Shown here: one piece after another, positions 1 to 61,155 of the stretch | Layout: the number at the start of each line of letters is the position of its first letter | How positions within the stretch are numbered: the first letter of the stretch is position 1 | NCBI GenBank assembly: GCA_023488435.1 | Contig: JAMDCK010000030.1 | Span: 20,177-84,176 of the forward strand | Source of the DNA: Actinomycetota bacterium | GTDB lineage: Bacteria; Actinomycetota; Coriobacteriia; Anaerosomatales; UBA912 | Direction of reading: 5' to 3' | Length of the DNA: 64,000 bases | Notes under the pieces: generated by a model | Database searches by the model: none | What the model saw: the letters and a program-made list of their open reading frames with translations, nothing else | What the model was told of the DNA's origin: nothing | Made by a program: the position numbers and the translations under genes

Positions 1-854
1 CGCTTCAGTTTACGGAGGTAAATGACGTGCCGCTTGAACCAACTGCCCTTATGGCCAGCGACGTATATTGTCCTACCCTGAAAGAGGTACCAGCGGAGGC
101 AGAGATTGCTTCACATCGCCTCATGCTCAGAGCGGGCTTGATTAGAAAGACGGCATCAGGGATATATTCGTTTCTGCCTCTCGGATATCGCTCGTTGATG
201 AAGATCGAAGCCATTGTGCGGCAGGAGATGCATGCGGTTGGATCGCAAGAGGTGCTTCTTCCGATAGTCCAACCGTCCGAGCTGTGGCTTGAGTCGGGCC
301 GTTGGTCTGTGTACGGCCCCGAGCTTGCAAGGCTAACCGATCGTTCCGGCCGTGAGTACTGCCTTGGTCCCACACACGAGGAGATAATCACAGCACTGGT
401 TCGCAATGAGATTCGCAGCTATCGTCAACTGCCGGTCTCGCTGTTCCAAATCAACATGAAGTTCCGGGATGAAATCAGGCCCAGATTCGGACTGTTGCGC
501 GGCCGTGAGTTCATAATGAAGGACGCCTACTCCTTCCACGCAACACAGGATTCGCTGCAAGAGCACTACGATGCTCAGAAAATCGCATACGGCCGGATTT
601 GTGACCGCCTATCCTTGAGGTACCGGCCAGTTCAAGCTGAGTCAGGTCAGATCGGCGGCAGCGTGACCACTGAGTTCATGGCTTTGGCCGACTCCGGTGA
701 AGCTGAAATCGTCTATTGCTCCTGCGGTTATGCAGCCAACGTTGATGTAGCTGAAGTCAATATGATGGTCGGTCCTCAAGGGCCGGCGGTTCCTCTCGAG
801 AAGGTTGCAACTCCTGGCCTTAGAACCATCGCTGAACTTGCAGATGCCTTTGAC
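1..854. repeat. Direct-repeat copy A of the proS upstream/5' region (identical to 1502-2355)
   Basis: Read base by base, 1-854 equals 1502-2355 (offset 1501) with no mismatch seen. Identity stops at 855 (a) versus 2356 (c). Copy A starts at the window edge, so its true left end is unknown. Confidence 0.9.
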
Positions 855-989
855 ATTGGCATAGCGGCAGGCGATGGGGTCGGGGTCATCTTCGTAAAGG
901 GAGCCCCAACAAGAAAGGTGTCGGAGGGCGAGATCGTAGACGCACTTTTCGAAGAACTGAAGATCATGGAATCGTCTGGCTCCGCGTGA
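27..989 (+). pseudogene. Chimeric truncated prolyl-tRNA synthetase fragment: first 276 ProRS codons fused in frame to 44 unrelated codons
   Basis: It has the same GGAGG/GTG start context as proS at 1528. The protein is identical to ProRS up to ...AELADAFD, then diverges ([16 protein letters not shown]...SSGSA*). It lacks class II motif 3 and the anticodon-binding domain. Confidence 0.75.
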
Positions 990-1061
990 TGGGAATCGCC
1001 TTGTCGGTCAAGATGCGATAAGCTGAAATACGAGATTTCCATCATACCGAAGGAGGTAGTC

Positions 1062-1451
1062 ATGGGTGAGAGGGTTAGTGTAGCCGTGATTGGTGGCGGC
1101 CGTATGGGAACGCCGCTTGTCATGGACTTCCTGACGCGTCCCTTCGTTGACTTGGTTGCCGTAGTCGACAAGAATCCGGAGAGCCGCGGGGCCCAGATAG
1201 CCAAGCAGCACAACATCTTTTTCTGCACCGATGTGTCTGAGCTTGCCGCAGATGCCGAGAACATAGACATGGTCATAGATGTATCTGGAGATCCTCAGGT
1301 CAAGAAGTCGCTGAAGGAGGCTTTTGTAGCTTCAGGCAACAGGACAACCATCATCGTGCATGACATCACTGCACGCCTGATAATGAGCCTTGCTGCTGAT
1401 TCTTCGGAATTGATCGCGACCGTCCATCCCGAAGATCGAGGGATCGGATAG
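1062..1451 (+). CDS. Small NAD(P)-binding Rossmann-fold protein (dinucleotide-binding domain only)
   Basis: 129-aa ORF with GAAGGAGG (1049-1056) 5 nt upstream of the ATG. The N-terminal VAVIGGGRMG is a GxGxxG motif, followed by VAVVD at the end of beta-2. It lies in the unique segment between the two proS repeat copies. Confidence 0.6.
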   Translation: MGERVSVAVIGGGRMGTPLVMDFLTRPFVDLVAVVDKNPESRGAQIAKQHNIFFCTDVSELAADAENIDMVIDVSGDPQVKKSLKEAFVASGNRTTIIVHDITARLIMSLAADSSELIATVHPEDRGIG

Positions 1452-1501
1452 ACGCCTTATTTTGCAGTTCCAAGCGGGCCGCCGTCGGTTCTGGCGCGGC
1501 T

Positions 1502-2355
1502 CGCTTCAGTTTACGGAGGTAAATGACGTGCCGCTTGAACCAACTGCCCTTATGGCCAGCGACGTATATTGTCCTACCCTGAAAGAGGTACCAGCGGAGG
1601 CAGAGATTGCTTCACATCGCCTCATGCTCAGAGCGGGCTTGATTAGAAAGACGGCATCAGGGATATATTCGTTTCTGCCTCTCGGATATCGCTCGTTGAT
1701 GAAGATCGAAGCCATTGTGCGGCAGGAGATGCATGCGGTTGGATCGCAAGAGGTGCTTCTTCCGATAGTCCAACCGTCCGAGCTGTGGCTTGAGTCGGGC
1801 CGTTGGTCTGTGTACGGCCCCGAGCTTGCAAGGCTAACCGATCGTTCCGGCCGTGAGTACTGCCTTGGTCCCACACACGAGGAGATAATCACAGCACTGG
1901 TTCGCAATGAGATTCGCAGCTATCGTCAACTGCCGGTCTCGCTGTTCCAAATCAACATGAAGTTCCGGGATGAAATCAGGCCCAGATTCGGACTGTTGCG
2001 CGGCCGTGAGTTCATAATGAAGGACGCCTACTCCTTCCACGCAACACAGGATTCGCTGCAAGAGCACTACGATGCTCAGAAAATCGCATACGGCCGGATT
2101 TGTGACCGCCTATCCTTGAGGTACCGGCCAGTTCAAGCTGAGTCAGGTCAGATCGGCGGCAGCGTGACCACTGAGTTCATGGCTTTGGCCGACTCCGGTG
2201 AAGCTGAAATCGTCTATTGCTCCTGCGGTTATGCAGCCAACGTTGATGTAGCTGAAGTCAATATGATGGTCGGTCCTCAAGGGCCGGCGGTTCCTCTCGA
2301 GAAGGTTGCAACTCCTGGCCTTAGAACCATCGCTGAACTTGCAGATGCCTTTGAC
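1502..2355. repeat. Direct-repeat copy B (native proS upstream/5' region)
   Basis: Identical to 1-854. It continues without interruption into full-length proS. Confidence 0.9.
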
Positions 2356-3273
2356 CTGCTTTCATCGCAGACGGTCAAGACCATGGCTGCCAAGACCGTT
2401 GACTCCACACTGGTCTACTTCCTTCTCCCGGGCGACCGCGAGCTCAACCAGGTCAAGGCCCAAGCTGCGGTCCCCGGCGTGACTCTGCTTGACGAGGAGG
2501 ACTTCAAGGCCTTCGGCATCCCGAAAGGTTCATTGGGCCCCGTGAACGCTCCATCGGGCACACTCCTCGTCGCGGACCGCTCGCTTCTTGAGCTCCTCAC
2601 CTGGACTGTCGGTGCCAACGAGGACGGCTACCACTACTTCGGCGCTTCCCGTGATCGTGATTTCGAGATCGACCTGTTCGCCGACCTCTTGATCGCTTCG
2701 GCTGGCGATCGCTGCCCAGTCTGCAAATCCCAGTCGCTTGAGGTGGCTCGCGGTATCGAGGTCTCACAGGTCTTTCAGCTTGGGACCAAGTACTCGGAGG
2801 CGATGGGGGCAACCTTCATGTCCGAGGAGGGCAGGGAGGAGCCTCTCCTCATGGGCTGCTACGGCGTCGGCATCACACGTTGTCTTGCTGCGGTCATCGA
2901 ACAACATCACGATGAAAAGGGTATTGCCTGGCCAATGGCGCTGGCACCAGTACACGTTGTGGTGCTACCCCTCATATCGGATCCTGCCGTCGCCGAGATG
3001 GCCTCCGACACATGGAAGGCGCTTGCTGAAAGCGGAGTCGAGACAATTCTGGATGATCGTGATGAAAGGGCTGGCGTCAAGTTCGCAGATGCCGACCTCA
3101 TCGGCTATCCGATGCAGATAGTATTCGGAAAGAAGACGCTGACAGAAGGACTGGTTGAGCTCAGGGACCGCAAGACTGGAGAATCGAGGGACATTCCCGC
3201 CGACGAAATCTGTCAGCTGGTCACCGAAATCGTCAGAAAGGCCATCCGGGACTCAAGCTCGGTACCCGGGTAG
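1528..3273 (+). CDS. proS: Prolyl-tRNA synthetase, bacterial type with editing insertion
   Basis: GTG at 1528 lies 8 nt after GGAGG (1515-1519). Class II motif 2 ([25 protein letters not shown]), motif 3 (GCYGVGITR), an internal editing insertion and a C-terminal anticodon-binding domain are present. The tracked start at 1462 (TTG) is probably an upstream over-extension. Confidence 0.95.
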   Translation: MPLEPTALMASDVYCPTLKEVPAEAEIASHRLMLRAGLIRKTASGIYSFLPLGYRSLMKIEAIVRQEMHAVGSQEVLLPIVQPSELWLESGRWSVYGPELARLTDRSGREYCLGPTHEEIITALVRNEIRSYRQLPVSLFQINMKFRDEIRPRFGLLRGREFIMKDAYSFHATQDSLQEHYDAQKIAYGRICDRLSLRYRPVQAESGQIGGSVTTEFMALADSGEAEIVYCSCGYAANVDVAEVNMMVGPQGPAVPLEKVATPGLRTIAELADAFDLLSSQTVKTMAAKTVDSTLVYFLLPGDRELNQVKAQAAVPGVTLLDEEDFKAFGIPKGSLGPVNAPSGTLLVADRSLLELLTWTVGANEDGYHYFGASRDRDFEIDLFADLLIASAGDRCPVCKSQSLEVARGIEVSQVFQLGTKYSEAMGATFMSEEGREEPLLMGCYGVGITRCLAAVIEQHHDEKGIAWPMALAPVHVVVLPLISDPAVAEMASDTWKALAESGVETILDDRDERAGVKFADADLIGYPMQIVFGKKTLTEGLVELRDRKTGESRDIPADEICQLVTEIVRKAIRDSSSVPG

Positions 3274-3284
3274 CCCGACGCCTC

Positions 3285-3340
3285 ACCACAAGGTCGACCA
3301 GGTCGAATCTTTGAGCATACGCCTGAGCTGACCTTGTGGT
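3285..3340 (+). terminator. Stem-loop downstream of proS (11-bp perfect stem, no U tract)
   Basis: ACCACAAGGTC (3285-3295) pairs with GACCTTGTGGT (3330-3340) across a 34-nt loop, starting 12 nt after the proS stop. Function as a terminator or regulator is not established. Confidence 0.3.
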
Positions 3341-3428
3341 ATCATAAGGTCGTCAGAAAATATCGTCGGGTGATGAGAAGTGGGCGAACCGTCCGCTTCT
3401 TTTGTTCTTGAGGAATGAGTGAAGCGAG

Positions 3429-3914
3429 TTGTCTAAGCGTTTGCAATCCACAATAGAGGCCCTTCTAACCCCGGCTGCGAATCGCGAGGGGTTTGAACTG
3501 GTTGCTGTCGAGGTAGTCGGAGTACACAGATCTCCGGTCATTCGCATCTTCTTGGATCATCCAGCGGGCATCGATGTCGAGCGTCTCGCTAGTGCAAACA
3601 AGTGGATCTCCGACATCCTTGACGCCGAGGATCCGGTTAGCGGTTCGTACACCCTGGAAGTAAGTTCTCCGGGGGTCGACAGGCCGTTGTCGAAGAAGTC
3701 AGACTTCGTGCGATTCTTGGGCGAGACGGCCTCAATCAAGACGGATCCGATAGATGGTAGATCCTCCTTCACGGGAGCGATCTCCGACGTAACAGATGAA
3801 GATATCGTGCTAAGTTCAGAAGTGGGTGTCTTCAGAGTACCCTTCACCCAGATCAAGAAGGCCCGATTGAAGGGCAAGATCGATTTCAGCCAGAAAGGAG
3901 AGCACCCTAAATGA
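3429..3914 (+). CDS. rimP: Ribosome maturation factor RimP
   Basis: 161-aa ORF with a TTG start. It sits in the conserved position immediately upstream of nusA with an ATGA stop/start overlap at 3911-3914. The sequence is RimP-like (VEVVG...VIRIFLD, C-terminal SH3-like part). Confidence 0.85.
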   Translation: MSKRLQSTIEALLTPAANREGFELVAVEVVGVHRSPVIRIFLDHPAGIDVERLASANKWISDILDAEDPVSGSYTLEVSSPGVDRPLSKKSDFVRFLGETASIKTDPIDGRSSFTGAISDVTDEDIVLSSEVGVFRVPFTQIKKARLKGKIDFSQKGEHPK

Positions 3915-11534: not shown

Positions 11535-11834
11535 ACGGAACAGGAAGTGGAAATTGATGAGTAAGGTTGTCGAGACTTTTGAGCTGTTTGGCAAGGAGTA
11601 TACGTTCGAGACAGGCGAGCTGGCCAAGCAGGCTGGCGGAGCGGTGGTTGTGCGCCAGGGAGACACTATGGTCTTGGTGGCTGCCACAGCGTCGGCCCAA
11701 GCCAAGGATTTCGACTTCTTCCCACTGACGGTGGACTTTGAAGAGCGGATGTACGCTGCCGGGAAGTTGCCCGGCGGTTTCATCAAGCGTGAGGCCAGGC
11801 CTAGCGAAAAGGCGATTCTGACTGCACGGATGAT

Positions 11835-12570
11835 CGACCGTCCTCTGCGTTCAGCTTTCGCAGAAGGCTTCCGTAACGAGGTCCAGATCATTGCGACCGT
11901 GCTCTCGGCTGATCAGGTCCATCAGCCCGATGTGATTTGCATCATGGGAGCGTCGGCGGCTTTGATGGTTGCTGGGATCCCCTTCGACGGTCCGCTGTCC
12001 GGTGTCCGGGTCGCTAGGGTCGACGGCGAGCTGCTTGTCAACCCCACCTTCGAAGAGCTTGATCGCTCCGACCTCGACCTTGTGGTTGCCGGTTCCGCCG
12101 ATGCAATCTACATGATCGAAGCCGGAGCCAATGAGGTTACTGAGGACGACATGTTAGAAGCGTTGCGGTTCGCGCAGAACGCGATTGCGCAATTCTGTGA
12201 AGTCCAGAAAGATTTCGCTAGCCGCGTTGCATCCACCAAGATGGAAGTTGCTATCTACGAGATCGACGAAGCGCTCAGAAGTAGGGTCTTCTCCCTCGGC
12301 TATGACAAGATGAGCGAGGCGCTGCGTAACCCCGATAAGCATTCCAGAATGTCGGATGTGGCAACCGTCAAAGAGTTCGTCATCACTCAGTTCTCCGACG
12401 ATGAGATGGCCGCCTCGGGTAAAGACATCAAAGCTCTTCTCAAAGAACTCGAGAAGACGGCCATGAGGCGCATGGTCCTCGATGAGGGCGAGCGAGTTGA
12501 CGGTCGTCGATCCGATGAGGTTCGTGAGATTTCGAGTGTAGCCGGCTACCTCCCTCGCGCCCACGGATCG
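11835..12570. repeat. Tandem duplication unit 1 inside pnp
   Basis: Identical by eye to 12572-13307, with a period of 737 nt. Confidence 0.9.
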
Positions 12571-12571
12571 A

Positions 12572-13307
12572 CGACCGTCCTCTGCGTTCAGCTTTCGCAG
12601 AAGGCTTCCGTAACGAGGTCCAGATCATTGCGACCGTGCTCTCGGCTGATCAGGTCCATCAGCCCGATGTGATTTGCATCATGGGAGCGTCGGCGGCTTT
12701 GATGGTTGCTGGGATCCCCTTCGACGGTCCGCTGTCCGGTGTCCGGGTCGCTAGGGTCGACGGCGAGCTGCTTGTCAACCCCACCTTCGAAGAGCTTGAT
12801 CGCTCCGACCTCGACCTTGTGGTTGCCGGTTCCGCCGATGCAATCTACATGATCGAAGCCGGAGCCAATGAGGTTACTGAGGACGACATGTTAGAAGCGT
12901 TGCGGTTCGCGCAGAACGCGATTGCGCAATTCTGTGAAGTCCAGAAAGATTTCGCTAGCCGCGTTGCATCCACCAAGATGGAAGTTGCTATCTACGAGAT
13001 CGACGAAGCGCTCAGAAGTAGGGTCTTCTCCCTCGGCTATGACAAGATGAGCGAGGCGCTGCGTAACCCCGATAAGCATTCCAGAATGTCGGATGTGGCA
13101 ACCGTCAAAGAGTTCGTCATCACTCAGTTCTCCGACGATGAGATGGCCGCCTCGGGTAAAGACATCAAAGCTCTTCTCAAAGAACTCGAGAAGACGGCCA
13201 TGAGGCGCATGGTCCTCGATGAGGGCGAGCGAGTTGACGGTCGTCGATCCGATGAGGTTCGTGAGATTTCGAGTGTAGCCGGCTACCTCCCTCGCGCCCA
13301 CGGATCG
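12572..13307. repeat. Tandem duplication unit 2 inside pnp
   Basis: Identical by eye to 11835-12570. A single junction base (a) sits at 12571. The native downstream sequence resumes at 13308. Confidence 0.9.
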
Positions 13308-15843: not shown

Positions 15844-16626
15844 ATGGTGAAGGTTCTTGTCTGCGGTGCTTTGGGAAAGATGGGTTCGGCTGCTGTCGAG
15901 GCTGTCATGGCTACCGATGACCTGCACTTGGTGGCTGTCGTGGACACTGGGATAAGTCTCCAGTCCGAGCCCGAAAACATCGAATCACCCCGAGAATTCC
16001 GAGATCTCGCTCAGGCGATAGCGGCCACCGAACCCGATGTGATGGTCGACTTCACTCATCCTCAATCAGTTGAGGACAACCTAGCCATCGCACTGCGATC
16101 CGGTGTCGATTGCGTGGTGGGGACCACGGGGCTGTCGCCGGATGTCCTTTCCTCGCTTGCAGAAAATGCACCTAACGGGACATGCCTGTTCTTCGCCCCG
16201 AACTTTGCAGTTGGGGCGGTGCTGATGATGAGATTTGCAGCCGAAGCAGCCAGATTCATGCCGCACGTCGAGATAATCGAGTTGCATCACGACCAAAAAG
16301 CCGATGCTCCCAGTGGAACCGCACTAAGAACCGCCTCTCTGATCGCGGAGCATCGGTCACTCGTTCCAGGTGAAGCGGCAGTGGAGTCGCAGGTCCTCGC
16401 GGGGGCGACCGGTGCACAAGTTGACGGCATCCCAGTCCACTCCATCAGGCTTCCGGGCCTAGTAGCACATCAAGAGGTTATCTTCGGAGCTAGCGGTCAA
16501 ACGTTGACCATCCGCCACGATTCTCTCGATCGCACTTCTTTCATGCCCGGAGTTCTGCTGGCTGTCCGCAAGGTTGGGGGTCTCTCGGGTTTGATTGTTG
16601 GCCTAGAAACGCTTATGGGTGATTAG
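15844..16626 (+). CDS. dapB: 4-hydroxy-tetrahydrodipicolinate reductase
   Basis: N-terminal dinucleotide fold (VCGALGKMG) and the conserved ELHHDQKADAPSGTA motif. Confidence 0.93.
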   Translation: MVKVLVCGALGKMGSAAVEAVMATDDLHLVAVVDTGISLQSEPENIESPREFRDLAQAIAATEPDVMVDFTHPQSVEDNLAIALRSGVDCVVGTTGLSPDVLSSLAENAPNGTCLFFAPNFAVGAVLMMRFAAEAARFMPHVEIIELHHDQKADAPSGTALRTASLIAEHRSLVPGEAAVESQVLAGATGAQVDGIPVHSIRLPGLVAHQEVIFGASGQTLTIRHDSLDRTSFMPGVLLAVRKVGGLSGLIVGLETLMGD

Positions 16627-17878
16627 CTTGGCTTCAGACACCATCGGAAATTCGGGTTCCATTGTCGTCATGAAGTTCGGCGGTACATCGACTGCTGACC
16701 ACCAGAGTCGAAAAGCAGTGGTTGGGAAGATACTCAACGCCATCAAGTCAGGGCTCAGTCCGGTGGTAGTTGTCAGCGCAATGGGCAGGCAAGGCTCCCC
16801 GTACGCAACCGACACCCTTTTGGCGCTACTCGATGAGGGTGCAACCGACCCGCAAGACACAGACCTACTCTTGTCGACAGGTGAGATCATTTCAGCAGTG
16901 GTTGTTGCTCAGGAGTTGAGGGCCGCAGGCATTTTAGCCAAGGCTATATCAGGTGGCGATGCTGGGTTGATCACCGAAGAAAACCATGGCGACGCACGAA
17001 TAGTAGCCATCTATCCGGATCGAATTATCGAGCTGATACAAGGTGGTTGCGTTCCCGTAGTTGCCGGCTTCCAGGGAGTCTCGGTCGGCGGATCGACAAC
17101 CACCCTTGGCCGGGGTGGTAGCGACACAACTGCTTGTGCGCTTGGTGTAGCTCTCGATGCTGCGGCCGTTGAGATCTATTCGGATGTCGAAGGAGTTGCA
17201 ACGGCCGATCCGCGGGCCTGTGACGGAACCAGGATCCTCGAGGTCATCGGGGCAGACGAGTTGTTCCAGCTTGCTAGGCATGGCGCGCGAGTAGTGCATG
17301 CGCCGGCAGCAGATCTTGCTCTTCGCAACAGCCTCCGCCTCAGGATTCGAGGCACGTTTTCTGCCGATGAGGGAACCATGGTATTACCCGATGACCGTTA
17401 CTCTCCAACAGGGGTTGCAACTGCACTTTCGCACACAACCGACATAGTGCGCGTACGGGTCGACCTTAGTCATGATGAGGGCTCTCCCGACCACATGAAA
17501 GCTCAGTCCGAGGTCTATTCGGCGATGGCGCTTCGTGGGATATCGCTCGACATGTTCACCCCCGCTGGCCGCCATCTGATCTTCACTACCTCGTTTGATT
17601 GCACTGAGGGATTGAAGGCAGCCTTGGATGCTCTCTCGCTCCCATACGACCTTCAGACTGATTTGTCTAAAATCACCCTTGTTGGGGCTGGAATGCACGG
17701 TGTACCCGGCGTAATCGCCAAGATGTCTGAGTGCCTGAACACCGCAGGCGTGCCAGTTCTCCAGAGCTCCGACAGCCACACCACAATCTCGGTAATCGTG
17801 AATTCAAGGTTGCTTAGGGTTGCCCTTGAAGCGCTAAGTAAGGACTTCGATCTTGGAAATGGGAATTGTTCGTGCTGA
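16619..17878 (+). CDS. lysC: Aspartate kinase
   Basis: The VVMKFGGTS kinase N-terminus, GRGGSDTTA, and a C-terminal ACT-type regulatory region are present. The GTG start overlaps the dapB stop. Confidence 0.9.
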   Translation: MISLASDTIGNSGSIVVMKFGGTSTADHQSRKAVVGKILNAIKSGLSPVVVVSAMGRQGSPYATDTLLALLDEGATDPQDTDLLLSTGEIISAVVVAQELRAAGILAKAISGGDAGLITEENHGDARIVAIYPDRIIELIQGGCVPVVAGFQGVSVGGSTTTLGRGGSDTTACALGVALDAAAVEIYSDVEGVATADPRACDGTRILEVIGADELFQLARHGARVVHAPAADLALRNSLRLRIRGTFSADEGTMVLPDDRYSPTGVATALSHTTDIVRVRVDLSHDEGSPDHMKAQSEVYSAMALRGISLDMFTPAGRHLIFTTSFDCTEGLKAALDALSLPYDLQTDLSKITLVGAGMHGVPGVIAKMSECLNTAGVPVLQSSDSHTTISVIVNSRLLRVALEALSKDFDLGNGNCSC

Positions 17879-51958: not shown

Positions 51959-52338
51959 GCCTCGCCGACGTGAACCGAGTACCGATCGGCGGGCATCAGT
52001 GATTCCATCTCCTCAGGATCGCTCATCTGGATCTTGACTATCCAACCCTCACCGTAAGGTTCCGAGTTAATGATCTCAGGTGTGTCTGGGAGAGTCGAGT
52101 TTACCTGGACAACCTGACCCGTGACAGGTGCATACAGCTCTGAGACCGACTTCACAGATTCAACCTCACCGTAGACTTGCCCGGCCGATATAGTGCTACC
52201 GACTTCGGGCAGTTCGACATAGACTATCTCCCCTAGCTGTCTCTGGGCGAAGTCGGTGATGCCGATGGTGGCAAGCCCGCCTTCTCCAATCTTCACCCAT
52301 TCATGCTCAGGATGGTAGCTTCGATCATCCGGATTCAT
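51955..52338 (-). CDS. gcvH: Glycine cleavage system protein H
   Basis: HEWV motif and the lipoyl-lysine motif EVESVKSVSELYAP. Confidence 0.96.
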   Translation of the reverse strand: MNPDDRSYHPEHEWVKIGEGGLATIGITDFAQRQLGEIVYVELPEVGSTISAGQVYGEVESVKSVSELYAPVTGQVVQVNSTLPDTPEIINSEPYGEGWIVKIQMSDPEEMESLMPADRYSVHVGEA

Positions 52339-54679
52339 CGTTCTCCTTTCGGCAATTATTCTGTCTTAAAGAAGTGTCGTGCACGAATGGTGGATCCACA
52401 ACGATCAGCGGAGCGTGCTTCCGTCTGACCTGCAGATCAAGCTTCTGCTCCGCGACGGCGTACTCGATGGGAATGTAGCCAGATGCGATCCCGATAGAAA
52501 GCGATGGGGAGAATGTCCCACTGGCTACACGCCCAATTTCAATACCCTTCACCGAGATGCTCATTCCCTGCCTTGGTATCCCTTCGGTGGACGTGAAGAA
52601 AGCAAGCACTCGTTCAATGCCTTGTTCGCGAATCCGCCGAATTGCCTCGCTACCAACAAAATCATGCTTCTTATCTGGACAAACCCATCCGAGACGGGCG
52701 GATATCGGATCCACTCCCCTATCCATGTCTGAACCATAAAGATGATAACCCATTTCAAGTCTGAGGGTGTCGCGAGACCCGAGGCCACAAGGGGTGATTT
52801 CTGAGAACGAAAGCAGGTATCGCCAGATAGCCACTGTATTGGACTCATGTGTGAATATCTCGACTCCGTCTTCGCCGGTGTATCCGGTTCGAGAGAGGAG
52901 GACTGGCATGTTACCGACGGTGGACGGCGCAATGCTGAATCGCGCAGGAAAAGTGGTGTCTTTGGGCGTCATATGCTCAAGTAGCCTCATGGCGAGCGGA
53001 CCCTGCAGAGCTATCAAACCAGTGCGATCGGTCTCATCGATGATATCAAGATCGATGCCGTGCTTGCGCGCGCCCTCTCCGGCGGACTCATTTAGGCTCC
53101 ACCTGTCGCGGATCGTGTTCGCCCAATCGAAGACGATGTACCGATTCACCGCATTGGCCACAAGGAGATATTCGTTATCGCCAGTCCGATACACGATGAC
53201 GTCATCGATGATTCCCGCATCGTGGTCGCATATCAATGTGTACTGAGCTATTCCGGGCACTGAGAGACGAGACAGATCGTTCGTCATAAGGTACTGCAGG
53301 AAATCGAAAGCGCTTGCTCCGCACACCCGAAGCTGTGCCATGTGACAAAGATCGAAGATACCGCAGCCCTCCCGAACAGCCGAATGCTCCTGCCGTATAC
53401 CCATGTACTGCATCGGCATCAGATAGCCGGCGAACTCGGTCATCTGCGCACCAAGTGCGATGTGTTCATCGTAGAGCGGTGTTTTTGAAACCTGTGTGGC
53501 CAAGGGAACTTGCCCTTCCTGTGGACGGAAGAAGCGCTGAATGGCGATCCAAACTCTTTCGAACACTCCTGGCTTTTCTACCGAAACCTGTGAAACAAGC
53601 GTGGTCTGATAGATTAATCTATCATCTTGTACCAACCTTAGCGTACCAAGGCGATCGCCAGCAGCCACGGGAGCCTCGATGTGGGCAACTAGCTCAACCT
53701 CAGCCGTGACCTGACCGTCTGGCGCGAATATGTAGTCCGAAAAAGCGGAGTTCGAAACGGCAGGAATAGTGAGGTCGAGATAGTCGGTGACTCGCACTGA
53801 GCCGAATTCCTGGCCACGGTCCACGAATCTCTGGTATGTGAGATTTTCAAATCCCCAATCCATGGCCTGCTGGGCGATCACAAACCTTGCCCTCTCGCTA
53901 GGAGTCCCAAGAATGACCGCAAAAAGCTCGAGTCCGTCCCGGCTAGCCGAAGAGATTAACGAAAAGCCTGCGCGCGAGGTCCAGCCAGTCTTCAAGCCTG
54001 TTGCCCCAAGGTATTCGCCTACGAGCAGGCTTGTATTCTCTTCAGGCGGCCTCGGGCCAGAGCCATCCGGATCAAAGAATTCCAATGCTGATATCCTTCT
54101 GATCTCATCGCTCTGCATCGCATACCGAGCGAGTATTGCTAGGTCGCGTGCGGTGGAGTAGTGCCCGGCCTGATCTATGCCATGAGGATTCGCAAAGCGA
54201 GTATCTGACATACCTAGCCGAAGAGCCCGATCGTTCATGATTGCAACGAACTCCTCCGGGGAGCCTGCGACGTGTCGTGCCAGAGCGTTAGCAACCTCAT
54301 TTCCGGAAACCAACAGGAGGGCTTCGAGGCACTCCCTGACGGTCATGATTTCGCCAGGGCGGAGGTTGGCATTCGATCCCCCCGTTGCGATATCGGCTGC
54401 TGATATCATCACGGAGTCGTCGAGATTTGCACGATCGAGGACTACGATTGCCGTCATTATCTTGGTAATGCTAGCAATGGATCGACTCTCATCCGCGCCC
54501 TTTGACCACAATTCGTGCCCATTTTCTGAGACGAGCAGCAGTGCTTCGTGTGGAGTGTCAATCGAAGGACCGCGCGAGCTAGAAGTTGCCGAAAGTGGGT
54601 CATCGGAGTTGACTGCATAGGCTGAAGCCGGAGATAGGGCTATTACAATCGAAAGGATAAACACTAGCGAGTTATTCAT
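52325..54679 (-). CDS. gcvT: Single ORF fusing an exported D-alanyl-D-alanine carboxypeptidase (S11/PBP5-like) to aminomethyltransferase GcvT
   Basis: N-terminal half: signal peptide MNNSLVFILSIVIALSPASAYA, SITK, SGN and KTG motifs, and a PBP5 C-domain. C-terminal half, from KTPLYDEHIALGAQMTEFAGYLMPMQY, is a complete GcvT. No stop separates the halves. An in-frame TTG at 53503 preceded by AGGAAGGG could start a stand-alone GcvT. Confidence 0.8.
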   Translation of the reverse strand: MNNSLVFILSIVIALSPASAYAVNSDDPLSATSSSRGPSIDTPHEALLLVSENGHELWSKGADESRSIASITKIMTAIVVLDRANLDDSVMISAADIATGGSNANLRPGEIMTVRECLEALLLVSGNEVANALARHVAGSPEEFVAIMNDRALRLGMSDTRFANPHGIDQAGHYSTARDLAILARYAMQSDEIRRISALEFFDPDGSGPRPPEENTSLLVGEYLGATGLKTGWTSRAGFSLISSASRDGLELFAVILGTPSERARFVIAQQAMDWGFENLTYQRFVDRGQEFGSVRVTDYLDLTIPAVSNSAFSDYIFAPDGQVTAEVELVAHIEAPVAAGDRLGTLRLVQDDRLIYQTTLVSQVSVEKPGVFERVWIAIQRFFRPQEGQVPLATQVSKTPLYDEHIALGAQMTEFAGYLMPMQYMGIRQEHSAVREGCGIFDLCHMAQLRVCGASAFDFLQYLMTNDLSRLSVPGIAQYTLICDHDAGIIDDVIVYRTGDNEYLLVANAVNRYIVFDWANTIRDRWSLNESAGEGARKHGIDLDIIDETDRTGLIALQGPLAMRLLEHMTPKDTTFPARFSIAPSTVGNMPVLLSRTGYTGEDGVEIFTHESNTVAIWRYLLSFSEITPCGLGSRDTLRLEMGYHLYGSDMDRGVDPISARLGWVCPDKKHDFVGSEAIRRIREQGIERVLAFFTSTEGIPRQGMSISVKGIEIGRVASGTFSPSLSIGIASGYIPIEYAVAEQKLDLQVRRKHAPLIVVDPPFVHDTSLRQNNCRKENDESG

Positions 54680-54773
54680 TATGTCGGATATACTTATGCC
54701 ATGGGTACTGATTTTGATCACGGGTCGATCCATTTCGACGAGGGAAACTCATGACGCACTCGGTCAGCGAACA

Positions 54774-61018: not shown

Positions 61019-61078
61019 TGCACTCCTCGGTTGTACCGATCGCTAGTTGCGACCTTGTCCGATCGCCGAATAAGAACA

Positions 61079-61155
<77 letters not shown>

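Follow-up and report, generated by a model that had tools for sequence, protein, structure and literature searches.

The left end of the 64-kb window (the whole stretch of 64,000 nucleotides analysed here) most likely records a template-switch duplication that is not a fixed feature of the genome and has given rise to no new gene. In positions 1 to 2355 a native segment of 1,501 bp (855–2355) is duplicated head to tail, with at least 1.57 units present, and the start of the sequence cuts the duplication off on its left side. Its sole novel adjacency lies between positions 854 and 855, where the 5′ part of proS, the prolyl-tRNA synthetase (ProRS) gene, runs in frame into the 3′ end of ispG. A second event of the same kind, equally specific to this contig, duplicates part of pnp further downstream. 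Direct local duplications with short microhomology, one of them carrying a 1-nt filler, are the signature of a backward template switch on the same strand. Whether it took place in the cell or in the tube, the event is of an ordinary and known kind and bears no sign of selection or function.

Geometry of the repeat

A base-by-base comparison of positions 1–854 with positions 1502–2355 found 0 mismatches over 854 bp, in agreement with the preliminary description, which had read the two segments as identical at an offset of 1501. The copies diverge exactly after 854 and 2355, where the sequence reads TTTGAC/ATTGGC at the first position and TTTGAC/CTGCTT at the second. A chance origin is far too improbable for an exact repeat of this length. 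When the whole window was scanned for repeats of at least 40 bp, one other was found in the 64 kb, that in pnp, and the window contains no Ns.

Copy A (1–854, forward strand) is the extra copy. It carries the last 5 nt of a hairpin in the proS leader, the proS Shine–Dalgarno sequence and GTG start, and ProRS codons 1–276, and it forms the 3′ part of a first, truncated 1,501-bp unit of which 854 bp are visible, the sequence beginning there. In every native locus (the public contigs described below) this segment occurs a single time. Copy B (1502–2355, forward strand) is the native proS leader with codons 1–276, and native sequence continues from it on both sides. Two junctions bracketing a unique segment had been described previously, but the comparison with native loci leaves one: the boundary at 1501/1502 is the sequence start displaced by 1,501 bp, is otherwise native sequence and is colinear with the native loci, so that 854/855 alone is new. 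The alternative offered at the same time, which places 855–1501 natively upstream of proS and makes 1–854 the misplaced part, is the one that the native contigs bear out, since they show the same order.

The joint at 854/855 is marked by the tetramer TGAC (851–854, forward strand), which precedes the breakpoint in both parental sequences, native ispG (GCTGAC/ATTGGC) and proS (TTTGAC/CTGCTT). For breakpoints placed at random in the window, the probability of a microhomology of at least 4 bp is 0.017. The proS region shows two of the features looked for in a tandem duplication formed in vivo, namely a head-to-tail arrangement with exactly one novel joint and a short direct repeat at both breakpoints.

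Comparison with public contigs

An exact-protein look-up of the product of orf129, a small gene lying between ispG and proS, returned 23 public contigs, and all 23 have the gene order rseP–ispG (364 aa)–orf129–proS (581 aa)–rimP–nusA–infB. The base-level comparison covered 10 of these loci. Each of the ten is 99.95–100% identical to the window and colinear with it from position 851 rightwards, and three (L007, L010 and L014) show zero differences from it over 10–11 kb. In all ten the proS 5′ region is single-copy and the 40-mer spanning the 854/855 joint is absent; the same 40-mer had no match in the genome_contigs or metagenome_contigs collections. The chimeric protein predicted across the joint, whether taken as 320 aa (GTG start), 312 aa (ATG start) or 328 aa (truncated at the edge), is absent from an index of 153 billion genes. 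A fixed duplication would be expected to reappear in independent assemblies of the same strain, and 23 of 23 assembled loci are native.

Apart from the pnp duplication, positions 855–64000 are colinear with the native contigs. Outside the two duplications there are no indels and at most a handful of substitutions relative to the native contigs (none relative to the best-matching ones). Both duplications fall within the first 13.3 kb; from 13308 to 64000 the sequence is gap-free and colinear, and the remaining ∼50 kb contain no anomaly. The right edge of the window is an arbitrary cut within colinear sequence, beyond which the native contigs extend.

Genes of the duplicated region and the chimeric reading frame

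The intact proS gene (1528–3273, forward strand) encodes a protein of 581 aa in which the class II core, the editing domain and the anticodon-binding domain are all present, and the native contigs have a 581-aa product called at the same locus. Copy B does, as had been claimed, continue into a normal proS, its domains being complete and its length and locus those of the native gene. Between the novel joint and proS lie three further elements. The first (855–989, forward strand) is the 3′ end of ispG (gcpE), comprising the last 44–45 codons and the stop; it matches positions 307–342 of the 343-position Pfam GcpE profile and is 100% identical to residues 320–364 of the native 364-aa IspG. No further piece of ispG was found in the window, the 5′ 319 codons being absent. 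The second, orf129 (1062–1451, forward strand), encodes a stand-alone Rossmann-type NAD(P)-binding domain of 129 aa that matches the Pfam N-terminal domains GFO_IDH_MocA and DapB_N. It is the sole complete gene within the 1,501-bp unit, and in all native contigs, as well as in a sister species of ∼80% identity, it is flanked by ispG and proS. The third is the proS leader (1452–1527), which contains a strong hairpin.

Across the joint runs a chimeric open reading frame (27–989, forward strand) of 320 aa, in which ProRS residues 1–276 are fused in frame to the last 44–45 residues of IspG. The GAC codon shared at the joint specifies Asp in both ProRS and IspG. The preliminary description had the start and extent of this frame right (the same Shine–Dalgarno sequence and GTG, 276 ProRS codons, ORF 27–989), and translation gives the 320 aa. 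It took the 44 codons beyond 854 to be unrelated sequence, and here it must be corrected: they are the in-frame 3′ end of ispG, as both the GcpE profile and the 100% identity show, and the chimeric frame stays open because it follows the reading frame of ispG as far as that gene's stop codon. Against Pfam, the chimeric product matches only positions 4–135 of the 179-position tRNA-synt_2b profile, which agrees with the earlier reading that it keeps motif 2 and has neither motif 3 nor the anticodon-binding domain. ProRS motifs 1 and 2 are retained, motif 3 and the anticodon-binding domain are missing, as is most of the editing domain, and a Pfam search of the chimeric frame gave no match to HGTP_anticodon or tRNA_edit. 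On the IspG side, the tail begins after the CPTC...GCVVNGPGE stretch that holds the conserved Cys and Glu residues of the enzyme, a stretch that carries the ligands of its iron-sulfur cluster. From this domain content the ProRS(1–276)::IspG(tail) frame is predicted to be a functionless by-product with no enzymatic function; the protein, if expressed, could at most interfere with ProRS dimerisation.

A second tandem duplication in pnp

The other long repeat in the window is a tandem duplication within pnp, of which two complete units are present in one assembled sequence. The first unit (11835–12570, forward strand) is 736 bp long and identical to 12572–13307. The second stretch (12571–13307, forward strand) begins with one untemplated nucleotide, an A at 12571, followed by the 736-bp copy, giving a period of 737 bp. 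The heptamer CACGGAT occurs at 11825, 12562 and 13299 and so stands at both native pnp breakpoints, an arrangement with P≈0.0005 per offset. The 737-bp period shifts the frame and splits pnp in two, one part of 371 aa (PNPase residues 1–338 followed by 33 out-of-frame residues) and one of 615 aa. In 23 of 23 contigs that carry the same RpsO, pnp is intact, encodes 729 aa and is unduplicated. The 40-mer across the pnp joint had no match in metagenome_contigs, and the truncated 371-aa PNPase has no exact-protein record.

A hairpin at the left terminus

A GC-rich hairpin (1472–1506, forward strand; −23.9 kcal/mol) lies between orf129 and proS. It is among the most stable 0.044% of 44-nt windows, and windows of such stability cover only 0.42% of bases. 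Position 1502, the image of base 1 in copy B, falls in the 3′ arm of this hairpin, the strongest in the window, which an arbitrary cut would achieve with p≈0.004. We therefore infer that base 1 is the true end of the contig or of the underlying molecule. The hairpin is kept in the sister species of ∼80% identity, where one stem pair has changed from C–G to T–A in a compensatory manner and a second has become a wobble pair. A search against Rfam returned tRNA-Pro only and found no leader element upstream of proS, and a promoter and terminator scan of positions 1–3600 gave nothing above shuffled sequence. Neither this hairpin at the sequence start nor the pnp tandem duplication (11835–13307) had been remarked on in the preliminary description, and both bear on the origin of the repeat.

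Origin of the duplications

The question posed at the outset, whether this is a rearrangement of very recent date or an artefact of assembly or of the contig end, named the right alternatives. We judge it rather probable that the duplication is technical, or derives from minority molecules, and lies outside the genome that the organism normally carries. On this account a polymerase that had copied proS as far as TTTGAC would have switched template back to GCTGAC, 1.5 kb upstream in ispG, and would then have copied the segment from ispG codon 320 to proS codon 276 (855–2355) a second time, leaving the joint at 854/855. The switch could have occurred in vitro, through template switching during amplification or library construction, or in minority molecules, in which case the assembler would have threaded the joint into the consensus near the contig end. 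The organism's real locus would be the single-copy rseP–ispG–orf129–proS–rimP.

A technical or non-fixed origin is favoured because the duplication is absent from all other assemblies, those of identical strains included, because two such events sit beside the sequence terminus, because a conserved housekeeping gene, pnp, is disrupted, and because the copies show zero divergence. It is favoured also because the microhomologies are shorter than those of joints verified in vivo and typical of in-vitro chimeras. A duplication of the contig-end or technical kind should lie at a true terminus, and the repeat does begin at base 1, which the hairpin suggests is such an end; its copies should be identical and unreproduced in independent assemblies, and they are. 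In chimeras produced by multiple displacement amplification (MDA) with phi29, about 77–93% of joints have at least 2 bp of complementarity, partners lie less than 10 kb apart, and roughly one joint arises per 10–22 kb regardless of gene function (PMC1855051). The two joints described here resemble these in their short complementarity (4 and 7 bp), in the spacing of the partners (1.5 and 0.74 kb), in a similar joint density and in their indifference to gene function.

Orientation, however, sets the two apart, since ∼97% of proximal MDA chimeras are inverted (337 against 11; PMC1855051), whereas both joints in the window are direct, a feature that speaks against a technical origin. Two further observations point the same way. 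DNA molecules bearing the joint must have been sequenced, as a true tandem duplication would equally predict, and the consensus is otherwise near-perfect, with no sign of a low-quality end.

The strongest competitor is a real and very recent microhomology-mediated tandem duplication, RecA-independent and of the replication-slippage type, that has reached fixation or a high frequency in the population sampled; we regard this as possible though less probable than not. The locus would then read ispG (intact)–orf129–proS′::′ispG chimera–orf129–proS (intact), a further 647 bp of the first unit would lie to the left of base 1, the assembler having broken the contig inside the repeat, and pnp would have undergone another such event in the same lineage. 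Assemblers often break at repeats. An overlap of only 4 bp means that the joint requires real molecules, and the head-to-tail arrangement with a single joint and microhomology is the classical signature of such events. With a complete tandem copy, ispG, orf129 and proS would all stay intact, so that the arrangement would presumably be viable, and the assembly of the pnp duplication is complete within a consensus that is otherwise perfect. Spontaneous duplications are, moreover, common in bacterial cultures (PMC3411829), and the lac amplification joints of E. coli provide a further example of microhomology-mediated tandem duplication (PMC1428787). The duplications of the window share with these spontaneous events the head-to-tail order, the single joint, the short direct repeats (TGAC and CACGGAT), the identity of the copies and the absence from sister genomes.

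The likeness ends at three points. Duplication joints verified in vivo in Salmonella chemostat populations have at least 11 bp of microhomology (PMC3411829), whereas those found here have 4 bp, and 7 bp plus a filler. Spontaneous duplications are normally rare variants, whereas here the duplication is the consensus sequence, and its first unit is cut by the sequence end. A real duplication is also at odds with its absence from the other assemblies, among them strains of 100% identity that come from several runs of apparently one series (SRR227461xx). It would require two independent unstable duplications, one of them knocking out pnp, to stand near fixation in a genome that, across most of the region compared, has no substitutions relative to the closest strain. 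Both events cluster beside the sequence terminus, and a real duplication leaves the position of that terminus within the hairpin without a reason. That an otherwise near-clonal, widely sampled uncultured bacterium should harbour, in one of its populations, two real duplications at high frequency strikes us as rather doubtful. If it were so, the window would offer a snapshot of a nascent fusion between the N-terminal half of ProRS and the tail of IspG, together with a doubled dosage of orf129 and a pnp knock-out, and would be a hint that template-switch duplication is elevated in the lineage.

Considerably weaker is the proposal of a pure mis-join by the assembler or scaffolder, in which overlapping contigs or paths were concatenated unmerged and no molecule with the joint ever existed; we consider this improbable. 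False duplications at joins are a known class of assembly error, and they have reportedly been described at contig ends and joins by Kelley & Salzberg in 2010 and Ko et al. in 2022. The repeat in the window is like them in its exactly identical copies at or near a sequence end, in being unreproduced and in the spurious truncated and chimeric gene models that result, and the 1-nt filler in pnp could be a closed gap of one N. False assembly duplications, however, usually stem from unmerged overlaps or haplotypes and lack microhomology, whereas the joints described here point to a polymerase event. Random concatenation predicts no microhomology, against the 4 bp (p=0.017) at the proS joint and the 7-bp repeat at the pnp joint, and the window is without Ns. 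Blind concatenation of overlapping contigs is unlikely because the joints carry the microhomology signature. Overlaps of 4–9 bp fall well short of any threshold for k-mers or overlaps and cannot make graph edges, and a mis-join in a k-mer graph was rejected on that ground.

Least probable, and very unlikely, is a functional new gene, whether a truncated ProRS paralogue or ProRS–IspG fusion under selection or an adaptive amplification of orf129. The in-frame fusion does keep the Shine–Dalgarno sequence and GTG, motif 1 and motif 2, and orf129 is complete within the unit, but an in-frame fusion is expected by chance one time in three. A functional paralogue should have a complete class II core with motifs 1–3, or some other complete domain, and should show conservation together with divergence. 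The product falls short of this in the ProRS parts listed above, its IspG tail amounts to just 45 residues starting past the GCVVNGPGE stretch, and it shows zero divergence from its parent and no occurrence in other assemblies; a functional paralogue was rejected for want of either divergence or conservation.

Three other readings were set aside. Had a proS fragment been inserted into ispG, another new joint would be required precisely at base 1, and ispG would be destroyed. A mobile-element origin was rejected in view of the absence from the window of inverted repeats of at least 40 bp; no transposase was present among the four ORFs of positions 1–3300 scanned against Pfam. A cDNA origin, in which switching by reverse transcriptase gives direct joints, is unlikely for a 64-kb contig that spans both strands and intergenic DNA.

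The main relevance of the template-switch duplication is as a matter of quality control and a hazard for annotation. Taken at face value, the contig would yield a spurious truncated ProRS/IspG fusion, would seem to lack ispG and would show pnp as split, and errors of this kind would skew what is called for this genome in gene content, completeness and paralogues. Were the duplications real, they would be ordinary microhomology-mediated tandem duplications, of modest interest as an environmental case caught in the act.

Near-clonality and insertions in related assemblies

When window positions 855–64000 were set against public contigs and loci (L001–L032), assemblies of several unrelated accession series showed 99.9–100% identity across tens of kilobases. 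These sources comprise DRR851xxx, ERZ22146367, ERZ27237461, SRR10252151, SRR10267473, SRR13221995, SRR227461xx and SRR29383103, together with two NCBI MAGs and one JGI metagenome. Because this identity holds across unrelated series, the uncultured species to which the window belongs is, as judged from sequence, nearly clonal. Its Pfam families include RsiG and Rv1828_C, which point to the Actinomycetota as its probable phylum. The gene order is the same in the sister species (GCA_002293965.1 and JGI 3300032021), which is ∼80% identical.

Some of the assemblies carry a gene for a UPF0236-family transposase (462 aa). L027 has a 1.5-kb insertion (its positions 16192–17718) placed at window ∼44330, and L003 diverges from the window directly after proS (window 3311), its sequence from 12250 onward encoding a transposase and multihaem cytochromes. 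Together these findings suggest an active IS in the lineage or, in the case of L003, a chimeric contig. For the same strain, several short-read contigs from Logan stop at window 61076–61105, at tRNA-Pro(GGG) (61079–61155, minus strand); the site (61076–61155) is uninterrupted in the window and in some other assemblies.

The region between ispG and proS

The gene between ispG and proS, orf129 (window 1062–1451), encodes a 129-aa protein made up of a Rossmann NAD(P)-binding domain alone; the domain is GFO_IDH_MocA/DapB_N-like, with weak similarity to Rex and to the N-terminal domain of acetaldehyde dehydrogenase. The gene keeps this position in both the window species and the sister species. Between orf129 and proS lies an exceptionally stable GC-rich hairpin (window 1472–1506; −23.9 kcal/mol), which the sister species retains with one compensatory change in the stem, C-G to T-A, and the leader downstream of the hairpin is unchanged between the two as far as the GTG of proS. 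The hairpin has no clear T-tract and an Rfam search returned no match for it; for proS it could serve as a terminator, attenuator or processing element.

Other features of the window

A further tandem duplication, specific to this contig, occupies window 11835–13307, with a unit of 736 bp plus 1 nt of filler and a CACGGAT repeat at its breakpoints. It frameshifts pnp, leaving ORFs of 371 and 615 aa; each of the 23 other contigs with the same RpsO has an unbroken pnp of 729 aa.

Upstream of gcvH and gcvP, an 802-aa ORF (window 52325–54733, minus strand) encodes a D-Ala-D-Ala carboxypeptidase (Peptidase_S11 and PBP5_C; residues 63–387) followed by a complete glycine-cleavage T protein (GCV_T and GCV_T_C; residues 420–784). 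The two proteins may be unusually fused here, or the ORF may have been called too long; an identical product is also called in five public contigs.
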